From positions 160,001-224,000 of the forward strand of contig CAVQUB010000013.1 in assembly GCA_963716725.1 (NCBI GenBank): a stretch of DNA of 64,000 bases, given 5' to 3'. Positions within the stretch are counted from its first letter, which is position 1; each line of letters begins with the position of its first letter. The notes beneath the pieces were generated by a model. The model saw only the letters and a program-made list of their open reading frames with translations, searched no databases and was not told the DNA's origin. This document shows, in pieces, positions 14,874-18,827 of the stretch. The stretch is from an uncultured delta proteobacterium (GTDB lineage: Bacteria > Myxococcota_A > Polyangia > Polyangiales > Polyangiaceae). Made by a program: the position numbers and the translations under genes.

Positions 14874-15632
14874 TCAGCCCGTGAGCATGCACCCGGGGTT
14901 CATGACCTTGAAGGTCCGCTTCACGCTGCCGGCGCCCTGAACGTCGATCTCGACTTCGAAATCGACGAGCTGGTTTTCTGGGAGATCGCAGACCGATTCC
15001 AGGGGAAAGATCCCGTAGACGCCCAGCGACTCGCCGCCGCAGTGGAGCGTGATGGCCGCCGGCGTGGACGCGCTGGGTTTGCCCGCCGCCGAGAGCGTCG
15101 TGTCCGCGCGAACGCAGCTCGCGTCGACGCCGCTCACCCGCACTCGATAGCCCACCATGGGGCTACCCTGCCCTCCCCAGATGAGCGAGAGCTCGGAACC
15201 CTCTGGGAGCGGCTCGAAGGGCTTGGCTGGATCGGCGGCGCCGATCTCGACGACCGCGCCAGCTGCTTGACCCGCGAAGGGCTTGTTGCAGGTCTCGCTG
15301 AGGGGCGGCACGGGACAGCCGCCCCCGATAGCGCCTTCGCAGGTGGCATCGCCAGCCCAGCGACCTTGGCCACAGGTAAACGTCCAGGTGTTCATCCCGT
15401 CGCCCACCGGGTACTGACAGGTGTCGGCGAGCTCGCAGCGCGCCCCCGGGAACGGCACCTTCGCCGGGCACACGACATCCGGCAGCGCGCAAGCGCCTCC
15501 ACCGCCGCCGACCCCCGCACCTCCGCCCGATCCTCCACTGGCGGAGCTCTCTTGCACGCTGCCAGAGCACGCGAAGGACGAGACACCCACGGCGAAGAGA
15601 AACCAGAGAGCGGTGAGGTGCGAGCGAAGCAT
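14874..15632 (-). CDS. Cys-containing lipoprotein (hypothetical)
   Basis: MLRSHLTALWFLFAVGVSSFAC lipobox; Gly linker; small Cys domain; C-terminal beta domain with WGGQGSPM. Confidence 0.8.
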   Translation of the reverse strand: MLRSHLTALWFLFAVGVSSFACSGSVQESSASGGSGGGAGVGGGGGACALPDVVCPAKVPFPGARCELADTCQYPVGDGMNTWTFTCGQGRWAGDATCEGAIGGGCPVPPLSETCNKPFAGQAAGAVVEIGAADPAKPFEPLPEGSELSLIWGGQGSPMVGYRVRVSGVDASCVRADTTLSAAGKPSASTPAAITLHCGGESLGVYGIFPLESVCDLPENQLVDFEVEIDVQGAGSVKRTFKVMNPGCMLTG

Positions 15633-15644
15633 GCGGCGCGCTTG

Positions 15645-15660
15645 TGCAACCCGTGTGCCG
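15645..15660 (-). promoter_or_regulatory. Sigma54-type (-24/-12) promoter
   Basis: Minus strand reads CGGCAC-ACGGG-TTGCA, matching (T)GGCAC-N5-TTGCW with exact GG-N10-GC spacing. Predicted TSS is ~15634, next to the ATG at 15632. Confidence 0.65.
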
Positions 15661-15736
15661 ACGGGCACCGCTACGAATGGCCGGGGCTTCGGCCTCGACC
15701 GCTGACTAGGCCCTGGCACACAGTGGCACTAGCGCG

Positions 15737-16036
15737 TCACCACGACCCGTGGCTGCCGTGCGATCCGTGGCTGCCGTGCGATCCGTGGCTGCCGTGCGAT
15801 CCGTGGCTGCCGTGCGATCCGTGGCTGCCGTGCGATCCGTGGCTGCCGTGCGATCCGTGGCTGCCGTGCGAACAGTGCTGGGCGGGAAAGACTCCGTCCG
15901 GTCCCCCGATCTCGGGAGCCTCCGCGCAGTTGTCCTTCGCCTTCTCGATCACGGCGTCCTCGGCCTTGCTGAGCATGCCGCGAGCGCTCCGAGCGAATGT
16001 CGGCAGCGCCCCGGAGCCGTCGTTCTTGGGAGCCAC
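15737..16036 (-). CDS. His-Xaa-Ser repeat peptide (HxsA-like), leader + HCS(HGS)14W
   Basis: 99-aa ORF in its own intergenic space, same strand as its neighbours; TAGGCT element 6 nt upstream of GTG; ends PAQ-HCS-(HGS)14-W*. Confidence 0.8.
   Translation of the reverse strand: MAPKNDGSGALPTFARSARGMLSKAEDAVIEKAKDNCAEAPEIGGPDGVFPAQHCSHGSHGSHGSHGSHGSHGSHGSHGSHGSHGSHGSHGSHGSHGSW
15743..15877. repeat. 18-bp tandem repeat x7 (ccgtggctgccgtgcgat) encoding HGSHGS
   Basis: Directly visible, with alternating synonymous codons within the unit. Confidence 0.95.
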
Positions 16037-16082
16037 GAACCCAGCCTAGCCCATCGAGCCGATGGGGACTAGGCCGCCGCCC

Positions 16083-18827
16083 TCAGACCGTGCGGCCCTG
16101 CTCGCCCTTGACGCGCTTTCGCAAGGTGGCCTGCGCAGCGGCCAAGCGCGCGATGGGCACGCGGAAGGGCGAGCACGAGACGTAGGCCAACCCCACGTCG
16201 TCGAAGAAGAAGATGCTCTCCGGATCTCCGCCGTGCTCCCCGCAGATCCCGAGGGAGATGTCGGCGCGGGTCTGCTTGCCTCGGTCGACCGCCATCTGGA
16301 CGAGCTGACCGACGCCCTCGGCGTCGAGCGAGACGAAGGGCTCGTGGGGCAGGATGCCGCGATCAACGTACTCGGGTAGGAAGCGCCCCGCGTCGTCGCG
16401 CGACAAGCCCAGGGTGGTCTGGGTCAGGTCGTTGGTGCCGAAGGAGAAGAACTCGGCCACCTCGGCCAGCTGGTGGGCGAGCAGCGCCGCTCGCGGCAGC
16501 TCGATCATCGTGCCGTACTTGTACTTGACCTCGACGCCTTGCTCCTTGAAGACCTGCGCGGCGACCTCGGTGACCACGGTCTTCATCAGCTCGAGTTCCT
16601 TCTTGCTGAGCGAGAGCGGAATCATGATCTCGGGCAGCACCTTCACGCCCTCCTTGTGGACCCTGCAGGCCGCGGTCAGGACGGCGCGGGTCTGCATGGC
16701 GCAGATCTCCGGGTAAGTGACGGCGAGGCGCACGCCGCGGTGACCGAGCATCGGGTTGAACTCGTGCAGCTCGTCGACCTTGCGACCGAGATCCGAAGCC
16801 GCAACGCCCAGGGTCTTGGCCAGCTCCTCGATCTGCGCCGTCTGCTGCGGCAAGAACTCGTGCAGGGGTGGATCCAAGAAGCGGATGGTCACCGGCAAGT
16901 CGTGCATCTCCCGGAAGATGCCGACGAAGTCCTCGATCTGGAAGGGCAGCAGCTTCGCCAAGGCCTTCTCACGTGCCGCCACGTTGCCAGCGAGGATCAT
17001 CTCGCGCACGGCTGCGATCCGGGCCTCTTCGAAGAACATGTGCTCGGTGCGGCACAATCCGATGCCCTCCGCGCCGAGCTCCCGGGCCTTCTTCGCCTGC
17101 TCGGGGGTGTCGGCGTTGGTGCGAACCCGCATGCGCCGAGCCGCGTCGGCCCAGTCCATGAGCTCGCCCACTTCGCCGGTGAGCTTGGGCTCGACCTTGG
17201 GGACCTCGCCCAGATAGACCAAGCCTGACGAGCCATCGATGGTGATCACATCGGCGAGCCGCACGACGGCGATATCGCCGCGCTCGGGTCGCACCGTCAT
17301 GATCTGGTTTTCGTAGTCGATGCTGACGCCGTGGCAACCGACGACGCAGCTCCGTCCCATGCCGCGGGCGACCACCGCCGCGTGGCTCGTGGCGCCGCCG
17401 CGTGCGGTCAGAATGCCCTTGGCCGCCTTCATGCCGTGCAGATCCTCGGGGGAGGTCTCGACGCGCACGAGGATGACCGCTTCGCCCTTCTCCGCACGCT
17501 TCTCGGCCTCGTCAGCGCTGAACACCACGCGACCGGTCACGGCCCCCGGGGAAGCCGGAAGCCCGTGGGCAACCGCCGGCACCGAATACTTGGGATCAAT
17601 CGAGGGGAACATCAGCTGCTCGAGTCGGTTCGCTTCGACGCGCAGGACCGCCTCGTCCTGGCTGATCAAGCCCTCCTTGGCCATGTCCACCGCAATCTTC
17701 ACCTCGGCCCGGGCCGCACGCTTGCCGTTGCGCGTCTGCAGCATGTACAGGCGGCCGTCCTCGATGGTGAACTCGAGGTCCTGCATGTCGCGGAAGTGAC
17801 CCTCGAGCCGCGCCTGAATTTCGTGGAGCTGCTTGTAGCTCTCGGGCAGCGCCTCCTCGAGGGAGAGTCCGGCCGTGGAGGGCCCCTTCGAGATGGGTCG
17901 CGGCGTCCGAATGCCAGCCACGACGTCCTCGCCCTGGGCGTTCGGCAACCACTCGCCGAAGAACTGCTTCTCGCCGGTGCTCGGATCGCGCGTGAAGGCG
18001 ACTCCGGTCGCGCTGCTCTCGCCGAGGTTCCCGAACACCATGCTCTGCACGTTGACCGCGGTGCCCCACTCCCCGGGGATGCCATGCATCTTCCGGTACA
18101 AGATCGCCCGGTCGTTATTCCAACTGGTGAACACGGCGCTGATGGCGCCCATCAGCTGGTCCACGGGTTTCTCGGGGAAGCCCTGGCCCGTCGCCTTGGT
18201 GATGATCTGCTTGAAGCTCTCGACGACCTGTTGCAGGTGGGCCGCGTCGAACTGGCTGTCCGGCACCGCGCGCACGAGTGCCTCGATGTCATCGGGCACG
18301 GCAACGCCCAAGGTCTTTGCCATCCGAGCGCGGACTTCGTTCAGCGCCTGATGGAAGGCGTGAGCCTTCACGTTCAGCACCACGCTGCCGTACATGCTCA
18401 AGAAGCGCCGATAGGCATCGTAGACGAAGCGAGGGTTCTTGGTGCGTTCGGCCATGCTCTTGGCCGTCGTATCGTTCAGACCCAAGTTCAAGATGGTGTC
18501 CATCATGCCGGGCATGCTGGCCCGCGCGCCGCTGCGCACGCTGACCAGAAGGGGGTTCTCGGGGTCGCCGAACTTCTTGCCGAGTTCCTTCTCGAGCCAG
18601 GCCATGTTTTCCGCCACGGCGTCCTTCAGCCCCGCCGGCATCTGCTTGCCGCCCTCGTAGTACGCGGTGCAGACCTCCGTGGTGATGGTGAAGCCCGGAG
18701 GCACCGGGATGCCCAGGTTCGCCATTTCTGCGAGCCCCGCTCCTTTGCCGCCGAGGAGCGCCTTCATGTCGCCCCGGCCGTCTGCCTTGCCCGCCCCGAA
18801 CCGAAAGATGATCTTCTTGGTGCTCAT
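16083..18827 (-). CDS. ppdK: Pyruvate, phosphate dikinase
   Basis: LLGGKGAGLAEM, LLVSVRSGARASMPGMMDTILNLG, GGATSHAAVVAR (phospho-His), GIGLCRTEHMF, FSFGTNDLTQ, GICGEHGG. Confidence 0.98.
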   Translation of the reverse strand: MSTKKIIFRFGAGKADGRGDMKALLGGKGAGLAEMANLGIPVPPGFTITTEVCTAYYEGGKQMPAGLKDAVAENMAWLEKELGKKFGDPENPLLVSVRSGARASMPGMMDTILNLGLNDTTAKSMAERTKNPRFVYDAYRRFLSMYGSVVLNVKAHAFHQALNEVRARMAKTLGVAVPDDIEALVRAVPDSQFDAAHLQQVVESFKQIITKATGQGFPEKPVDQLMGAISAVFTSWNNDRAILYRKMHGIPGEWGTAVNVQSMVFGNLGESSATGVAFTRDPSTGEKQFFGEWLPNAQGEDVVAGIRTPRPISKGPSTAGLSLEEALPESYKQLHEIQARLEGHFRDMQDLEFTIEDGRLYMLQTRNGKRAARAEVKIAVDMAKEGLISQDEAVLRVEANRLEQLMFPSIDPKYSVPAVAHGLPASPGAVTGRVVFSADEAEKRAEKGEAVILVRVETSPEDLHGMKAAKGILTARGGATSHAAVVARGMGRSCVVGCHGVSIDYENQIMTVRPERGDIAVVRLADVITIDGSSGLVYLGEVPKVEPKLTGEVGELMDWADAARRMRVRTNADTPEQAKKARELGAEGIGLCRTEHMFFEEARIAAVREMILAGNVAAREKALAKLLPFQIEDFVGIFREMHDLPVTIRFLDPPLHEFLPQQTAQIEELAKTLGVAASDLGRKVDELHEFNPMLGHRGVRLAVTYPEICAMQTRAVLTAACRVHKEGVKVLPEIMIPLSLSKKELELMKTVVTEVAAQVFKEQGVEVKYKYGTMIELPRAALLAHQLAEVAEFFSFGTNDLTQTTLGLSRDDAGRFLPEYVDRGILPHEPFVSLDAEGVGQLVQMAVDRGKQTRADISLGICGEHGGDPESIFFFDDVGLAYVSCSPFRVPIARLAAAQATLRKRVKGEQGRTV

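Follow-up and report, generated by a model that had tools for sequence, protein, structure and literature searches.

A His-Xaa-Ser repeat peptide of the HxsA4 family encoded apart from its putative radical-SAM maturases in a Polyangiaceae genome

The DNA considered here is a window of 64,000 nucleotides (C13:160001-224000) from the assembly of an uncultured member of the Polyangiaceae, which comprises 7.89 Mb, is 84% complete and is called G000 in the following; coordinates given without a contig prefix are window positions. Between ppdK, the gene of pyruvate, phosphate dikinase, and a putative lipoprotein gene lies a standalone open reading frame (ORF) of 99 codons, named hxsA4 here, whose product joins a leader-like region to a long series of His-Xaa-Ser triplets. 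An initial annotation, made from the nucleotide letters, had placed the ORF between these two genes and had described a leader of about 53 residues ending in FPAQ, 15 His-Xaa-Ser triplets and a terminal Trp; position and translation both agree with this description, and the parts of the gene are as follows.

15737..16036, minus strand: hxsA4 coding sequence, GTG start, TGA stop, 99 aa (ORF list and match to the family NF038313)
15878..16036, minus strand: leader region, residues 1-53 (MAPKNDGSGALPTFARSARGMLSKAEDAVIEKAKDNCAEAPEIGGPDGVFPAQ), ending in FPAQ (family alignment and substitution rates)
15740..15877, minus strand: core, HCS + 14 x HGS + W, 46 residues with 15 His (translation and repeat scan)

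The core is formed by 15 consecutive His-Xaa-Ser triplets closed by Trp and contains a single Cys. In the DNA it is an 18-bp tandem unit of 7.2 copies with 99% matches (15743-15871, Tandem Repeats Finder), and each unit encodes two HGS triplets in which the Gly-Ser codons alternate between GGC-AGC and GGA-TCG. The repeat is far beyond chance; hxsA4 is the only run of at least four H-x-S triplets found in all six frames of the assembly, and a genome-wide look for further peptides of this kind, which the initial annotation had recommended, yields no second one.

The peptide belongs to a family that is already curated. The NCBIfam profile NF038313, "His-Xaa-Ser repeat protein HxsA4", matches it with 116.1 bits (E 9.6e-34, cut-off 55) over residues 11-99, corresponding to profile positions 2-93 of 93, and a six-frame search of the genome with the same profile recovers the locus at 115.4 bits. 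The layout is also that of the family, with a non-repetitive N-terminal region of 53 residues followed by 15 triplets ending in W. Among 23 aligned members P12, L22, A33 and Q53 never vary, L11 and F14 hardly ever do, the leader motif LP(S/T)F...GMLS..E is kept, and the Q53-H54 junction and W99 do not vary, with the whole QHCS...SW frame invariant or nearly so. The GTG of hxsA4 falls, when aligned, where orthologues have an ATG start (MAPKNNG in G022 is one case). By these sequence features the gene is a genuine HxsA4 member, and an ordinary one, of a kind of family that is known but unstudied. No signal peptide and no hydrophobic segment were found in the peptide, its highest Kyte-Doolittle mean over 15 residues being 0.27, and a Pfam scan returned no peptidoglycan-binding domain; its sole hit, a low-complexity "Collagen" match on residues 58-97 (29.5 bits), was rejected as an artefact of G-x-y periodicity, as were NCBIfam matches to Scl/Lcl adhesins far under their cut-offs.

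That the ORF might not be a gene, being a by-product of the DNA repeat or the shadow of a real product on the plus strand (the DPWLPC or AAVRSV frames), is suggested by two long antisense ORFs of 335 aa (15042-16049, plus strand) and 107 aa (15749-16072, plus strand), which overlap hxsA4 and cross it and the lipoprotein gene, and by the G+C content at third codon positions of the 335-aa frame (0.825), which is the same as in the minus frame, the two frames having their third codon positions in common. This reading is contradicted because the pattern of conservation favours the minus frame. The curated profile matches the minus frame from end to end, and in the 46 codons from LPTF to QHCS, compared among seven same-genus orthologues, the ratio of nonsynonymous to synonymous substitution rates (dN/dS) is 0.03-0.46 in 21 of 21 pairs, which indicates purifying selection on the leader. 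Over the same stretch one antisense frame has a median dN/dS of 2.2, the 335-aa DPWLPC frame, which shares third codon positions with hxsA4 and whose conservation in homologues the initial annotation had named as an observation that would count against its proposal, contains stops in 6 of 21 pairs, as does the third antisense frame in all 21. The G+C content by codon position in the minus frame (0.70/0.53/0.83) resembles that of ppdK and hemL, with an inverted pattern in the plus frame (0.53/0.68), and relatives exchange AGC and TCG for one another at the Ser codons, which preserves HGS but would alter a plus-strand product. The probability left to a non-gene is therefore practically negligible, and the long antisense frames are best regarded as by-products of high G+C content and of the repeat, without coding conservation. 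Each of the 7 genus genomes has an orthologue, and in 17 of 41 related genomes one scores over the cut-off, in agreement with the leader conservation that had been proposed as a check; the expected variation in repeat length is also seen, the triplets numbering 13-15 within the genus and 9-17 across relatives.

The Hxs enzymes that would act on such a precursor are found in the same genome, each over its family cut-off, together with two HxsC-like proteins of the radical S-adenosylmethionine (SAM) type.

C30:53659-55062: HxsB, 539 bits against a cut-off of 370, between ndk and sucD/sucC
C13:450763-451740: HxsC4 (NF038332), 560 bits against a cut-off of 500, on the same contig as hxsA4 and 275 kb from it
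C9:35305-35565: HxsD, 51.8 bits against a cut-off of 50
G000:C30:55148-55828 (= L021:9143-10036), plus strand: HxsC-like radical-SAM protein of 297 aa, divergent from hxsB
G000:C9:59225-59899 (= L012:1456-3066): HxsC-like radical-SAM protein of 536 aa, 24 kb from hxsD

No match to the HxsB, HxsC or HxsD profiles lies within the window, as the initial annotation had observed, and the genes are not adjacent, being spread over four loci (C13:175.7 kb for hxsA4, C13:450.8 kb, C30:53.7 kb and C9:35.3 kb). The gene is nevertheless not a true orphan, as it had been called, since the expected radical-SAM enzymes are encoded at three other places in the genome, where the recommended genome search located them. 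The 297-aa protein beside hxsB scores 135.5 bits with the HxsC4 profile and 97.1 bits with the canonical HxsC profile (TIGR03977), both under the cut-offs; it is 41% identical to the product of the first gene of an Hxs cluster in G022 and 30% identical to the HxsC4 of its own genome, and its divergent arrangement with hxsB recurs in at least 6 of 7 genus genomes. The 536-aa protein has HxsC4 and HxsC as its top NCBIfam matches, far under the cut-offs, and genes similar to it lie 1.3-7.5 kb from hxsD in G001, G002, G003, G005 and G014. The system may thus employ three or four radical-SAM enzymes.

Two further ORFs were noted near these genes. Directly downstream of hxsD is an ORF with a SAM-dependent methyltransferase domain (Pfam Methyltransf_25/11; L022:7924-8835, plus strand = G000:C9:35923-36834), and about 1.7 kb from hxsC4 is one that matches an IS630-family transposase fused to a GxxExxY domain (L061:3902-5074, plus strand = G000:C13:447901-449073). 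The IS630-type ORF might be a remnant of the events that scattered the genes.

In several relatives the same genes form an operon. G022 carries five co-directional genes in the order HxsC-like radical-SAM protein, HxsD, HxsB, HxsA4 and HxsC4, separated by 16-218 nt; the D-B-A4-C4 order recurs in G033, and the D-B-A4 part is contiguous in G007, G009, G011, G034 and G038 as well as in second copies in G003 and G004. Co-occurrence is close to complete. Among the 41 related genomes, 19 with HxsB and 22 without, HxsB is present in 17 of 17 in which HxsA4 is over the cut-off, HxsA4 reaches the cut-off in 0 of the 22 lacking HxsB, HxsD (E <= 0.001) is found in exactly the 19 HxsB genomes, and HxsC4 is over the cut-off in 14. 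A sample of 301 genomes spread evenly over the phylum, searched for HxsA4 at E <= 1e-8 and for HxsB at E <= 1e-90, gave HxsA4 in 105 (97 over the cut-off) and HxsB in 112, with both in 102, HxsA4 only in 3, HxsB only in 10 and neither in 186; this is a pattern to which no statistical test was applied, since related genomes are not independent. In some families the system is near-universal (22 of 23 genomes in f29, 13 of 14 in f37).

Physical linkage is much less regular. For the 96 genomes in which both genes could be placed, six weak HxsA4 matches being left out, HxsA4 and HxsB are at most 3 kb apart in 38 and 4-12 kb apart in 3; in the other 55 they are either never on one contig (53) or on one contig at a distance of more than 1 Mb (2, one of them a single-contig genome). 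The class on different contigs is inflated by fragmented assemblies, though many of the genes lie far from contig ends. An unlinked hxsA4 is therefore common rather than odd in the phylum. G002, a near-complete assembly of 5 contigs, has hxsA4, hxsD and the hxsB/hxsC4 pair on three of them, hxsB and hxsC4 being 2.5 Mb apart on theirs.

Other Hxs loci were encountered in the same genomes. G006 has a second, decaying cluster (G006:C3:291593-294006) with an in-frame TGA in hxsA4, hxsB in two pieces and hxsD beside them. In G040 a different His-x-Ser protein of 246 codons (G040:C96:10787-11527 = L043:3304-4044, minus strand), which contains HRSHSSHRSHSSHYS, adjoins hxsD and an HxsB only 37% identical to that of G000; a second HxsB of this divergent type is located at G011:C33.

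Around hxsA4 itself the following genes and signals were recorded.

16083..18827, minus strand: ppdK (pyruvate, phosphate dikinase), upstream neighbour, outside the system (TIGR01828, 1317 bits)
16067..16072, minus strand: CTAGTC, possible -35-like element, weak, 18 nt upstream of the -10-like box
16045..16073, minus strand: hairpin CCTAG-(TC)-CCCATCG / CGATGGG-CTAGG between ppdK and hxsA4, overlapping both promoter-like elements
16043..16048, minus strand: TAGGCT, -10-like hexamer, 6 nt before the GTG, conserved in unlinked orthologues
14874..15632, minus strand: putative lipoprotein gene, downstream neighbour (ATG at 15632), with a lipobox-like FAVGVSSFAC read by eye

The stop codon of ppdK (16083-16085) lies 46 nt before the GTG of hxsA4. 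The lipoprotein gene has no NCBIfam or Pfam match and nothing ties it to the Hxs system; beyond it, on the opposite strand, is hemL. The position of hxsA4 is stable within the genus: 5 of 7 genomes carry ppdK on the upstream side, and on the downstream side 5 of 7 have the lipoprotein gene (absent in G002 and G004) and 6 of 7 have hemL, so that no genus genome is without a shared flank. The 13 loci from other genera found in the same search have no flank in common with it; the synteny with ppdK proposed as a check is seen in 5 of 7 genomes of the genus and at none of these 13 loci.

Expression signals differ between unlinked and operon-linked copies. All eight unlinked orthologues (seven from the genus and that of G014) have a GTG start with TA(G/A)(G/A)CT at -12 or -13, and none has a Shine-Dalgarno-like tetramer within 15 nt of the GTG, whereas the operon-linked copies start with ATG in 8 of 8 cases and have GGAG or GAGG 8-15 nt upstream in 6 of 8. 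The intergenic DNA of the orthologues has diverged to 67% mean column identity, and invariant positions are limited to an upstream T, a G, TA..CT and the GTG; TAnnnT occurs with a frequency of 0.001 per position in the window, whose G+C content is 68%. Leaderless mRNAs of actinobacteria and Deinococcus have their -10 hexamer in this place, 6-7 nt ahead of the start codon. The TAGGCT box, whose presence 6 nt before the GTG had been pointed out in the initial annotation, is conserved and fits a -10 promoter element better than a ribosome-binding site; because its spacing matches the leaderless layout, the hxsA4 mRNA is probably leaderless, with a predicted start at the GTG (16036). The -35-like CTAGT(C/G) occurs with identical spacing in 4 of the 8 orthologues (G000, G005, G001 and G002) and is a poor match to TTGACA, and a scan with the sigma-70 consensus over 15400-16500 gave 0 promoters.

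The hairpin between the two genes, also noted at first, is present and stable, the 61-nt stretch 16030-16090 folding at -32.2 kcal/mol (z = -2.28; 4 of 200 shuffles as stable). Since orthologues do not keep its inner stem, it was not accepted as a conserved regulatory element. The hairpin lacks a T-run and was not called by the terminator scan, whose sole terminator-like site in the scanned region is inside ppdK; downstream of the hxsA4 stop (15660-15745) folding is no better than that of shuffled sequences (z = -0.77).

The AlphaFold model of HxsB (predicted local distance difference test 84.7, predicted template-modelling score 0.86) consists of an N-terminal beta3-alpha3 unit at residues 20-85, a radical-SAM barrel and a C-terminal Cys-rich domain. 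Its top PDB matches are 5wgg and 5why (475-492 columns, E 1e-19, TM score 0.64-0.75, identity 18-20%), a sactipeptide thioether maturase which we take to be CteB, followed by anSME, TigE, ChlB with its precursor and SuiB with SuiA (5v1t). As modelled, HxsB has the architecture of leader-guided peptide maturases, with an N-terminal fold similar to the recognition element (RRE) of ribosomally synthesized and post-translationally modified peptides (RiPPs). The likeness to such enzymes lies in the near full-length alignment of the model with 5wgg/5why, in an N-terminus resembling a leader-recognition element and in a substrate of leader-core layout; the difference from the sactipeptide enzyme is in the low identity and in the core of HxsA4, where a multi-thioether product is impossible because there is just one Cys. 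A prediction of the complex between HxsB (499 aa, 19-row alignment) and residues 1-65 of HxsA4 (23-row alignment), run without controls, scored 0.02 against a mark of 0.32 and weighs neither for nor against their binding.

Taken together, these data favour, with a probability of roughly 0.75, a translated HxsA4-type precursor that is modified in trans by HxsB, HxsC4 and HxsD supplied from other loci; maturation in trans is implied because genes for the maturases lie elsewhere in the same chromosome set, at three loci. Leader binding, chemistry, cleavage site, leaderless start and biological role are all inferred. In the sequence of events proposed by analogy with Escherichia coli HXS, the only relative that has been studied, HxsB, which resembles CteB and combines an N-terminal leader-binding domain of the RRE type with a radical-SAM core and a SPASM domain, would dock on the leader; HxsB and HxsC4, together with HxsD, would then modify the His-Xaa-Ser triplets, and the leader would be cut off near Q53/H54 to release a product of about 46 residues. 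In the genus, hxsA4 would have left an ancestral hxsD-hxsB-hxsA4-hxsC4 operon and gained its own promoter, with the -10 box 6 nt before the GTG. A precursor modified in trans was one of the two possibilities raised in the initial annotation, and it is consistent with the partners in the same genome, the operon of relatives and the near-perfect co-occurrence.

Several points weigh against this interpretation. The score of HxsD is barely over its cut-off, canonical HxsC (TIGR03977) is absent from the genome at the cut-off (best 97.2 bits against 267.9), and at least three HxsC-like paralogues are present, any of which might act on the HxsA4 peptide. Among the neighbours of hxsA4, hxsB, hxsD and hxsC4, Pfam and NCBIfam scans revealed no peptidase or exporter, and further partners or substrates could be absent from the incomplete assembly. 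The name HxsA4 does not occur in the literature searched, in which no published biochemistry was found for HxsA4-type systems. Expression was checked in two RNA and two DNA runs, examined as contigs and chosen from the 20 of 24 listed runs that hold the stretch or part of it, two of which are recorded as RNA: in the two metatranscriptome runs no contig lies on the leader (15894-16035), and one contig of 48 nt and one of 61 nt lie on the repeat, with 2 and 4 mismatches. These repeat contigs do not demonstrate expression, because any HxsA4 gene of the community could yield them; the DNA contigs break inside the repeat.

The systems with which this one can be compared are partly described. The HXS anti-phage system HxsD-HxsB-HxsC-HxsA (TIGR03976-03979) was reported by Li et al., Nat Commun 2026 (PMC13128918), and according to that report matured HxsA of E. 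coli blocks phage DNA entry, its maturation requires the two radical-SAM enzymes HxsB and HxsC as well as HxsD and includes N-terminal processing and a shift of +8 Da on an SHRSS motif, HxsC binds HxsD, and 99.7% of HXS systems are found in Pseudomonadota (PMC13128918). The present system resembles canonical HXS in having HxsB and HxsD over the family cut-offs and a target protein with His-Xaa-Ser repeats. It differs in the target, here of 99 residues with 15 triplets, without signal peptide or peptidoglycan-binding domain and with no match to TIGR03979 (HxsA) at E <= 1; in the enzymes, with no TIGR03977 HxsC at the cut-off beside HxsB and with HxsC4 and HxsC-like paralogues instead; and in gene order, which is D-B-C-A there, D-B-A4-C4 in the relatives and four separate loci here. 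With the NF038313/NF038332 systems it shares a leader with an LPxF/LPxI motif, followed by His-Xaa-Ser repeats ending in Trp, and an HxsC4 over the cut-off in the genome; it differs from them in that the gene is unlinked from hxsB, hxsC4 and hxsD and the repeat is uniformly HGS.

The HxsA4 name is already carried in public records by proteins of metagenome-assembled genomes (MAGs) of Omnitrophota and Elusimicrobiales. The word-based protein search from which this naming was taken missed close orthologues that the genome search had found, probably owing to the low-complexity repeat, and was used for no other purpose. The Omnitrophota/Elusimicrobia proteins share the leader pattern LPx(F/I)...L..E; in members from other phyla (P0016, P0033, P0040, P0055, P0059 and P0077) a hydrophobic stretch of about 20 residues stands right after LPxIKK..FL..EEG (Kyte-Doolittle 1.6-2.3 in the Omnitrophota/Elusimicrobia proteins), which is absent in the myxobacterial members (0.27). 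Because of this segment, localisation may differ between the HxsA4 branches. What was already known is therefore the curated family (NF038313, NF038332) and its name on public MAG records; what is new is that all partners are located for one genome, that the unlinked state is counted and found to be frequent, and that the expression signals of unlinked and operon-linked copies differ, probably leaderless in the former and Shine-Dalgarno-led in the latter.

The other possibility raised at first, an unmodified poly-His peptide that binds Ni, Zn or Cu, or a metallochaperone tail, would require no maturase and could account for the 15 His of the 46-residue core, for the lack of a maturase within the window and for the housekeeping gene context. 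It has gained no specific support and is hard to reconcile with co-occurrence: HxsB is also present in 102 of 105 HxsA4 genomes, relatives have one operon with three radical-SAM genes, a simple chelator would not need a conserved leader of 53 residues or the invariant Q-H-C-S...S-W, and HxsB, HxsC4 and HxsD would be left with no other HxS substrate in the assembly. This makes an unmodified chelator very improbable.

The modified peptide could serve in defence, like E. coli HXS, or have a different role. An anti-phage effector of the E. coli kind, that is a matured repeat peptide that blocks phage DNA entry at the envelope, is suggested by HxsB and HxsD, homologous to E. coli parts for which such a block via matured HxsA is reported (PMC13128918), and the variable repeat number of 9-17 could fit an arms race. 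It is judged unlikely on several grounds. The peptide has no signal peptide, hydrophobic segment or peptidoglycan-binding domain, whereas E. coli HxsA is reported to require a signal peptide and the domain (PMC13128918), and the HGS repeats of the peptide have none of the basic residues stressed there for DNA binding (PMC13128918). The surroundings are of the housekeeping type, hxsA4 having ppdK and hemL nearby and hxsB having ndk and sucCD, and the near-universal presence in f29 and f37 looks vertical, unlike a patchy defence island. PADLOC, in its 2023 release, a library older than the description of HXS, has no match for HxsA4 or HxsD and matches the enzymes only as generic viperin-like radical-SAM proteins. 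The weight not taken by defence and by the unmodified chelator goes to a modified peptide of unspecified role.

A more specific proposal, tentative and on balance doubtful, is that the HxsA4 pathway of Myxococcota, instead of being a mobile defence island, is a vertically inherited "regulon" scattered over the chromosome, with at least three radical-SAM enzymes, in which the signal-less (His-Gly-Ser)n peptide would give a cytoplasmic polymer-like product. This product could, for instance, be a metal- or redox-active cofactor of peptide nature and would differ in role from the periplasmic block of DNA entry in E. coli; the unlinked precursor gene would have acquired a leaderless promoter of its own.

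The location of the partners removes an apparent anomaly, a RiPP-like precursor without enzymes. For HxsA4 the gene neighbourhood alone is a poor guide, since in more than half of the sampled genomes with both genes no hxsA4 was seen close to hxsB, yet co-occurrence is nearly complete. The uniform HCS(HGS)14W core and its single set of partners would be a clean substrate for HxsB/HxsC-type chemistry on His-Xaa-Ser, which for E. coli HXS is reported only as the +8 Da shift (PMC13128918). The change from a Shine-Dalgarno-led ATG in operon-linked copies to a -10 box before a GTG in unlinked ones offers a small, testable case of a relocated gene that regains its expression signals.

A last observation concerns ppdK, of which the segment 16391-16461 has a very high contig depth in all four RNA and DNA runs, up to about 10,000 in one DNA run. 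Many of these contigs run into unlike sequence, and the segment, rather than being a feature of G000 itself, is a conserved part of ppdK common to many organisms of these communities.

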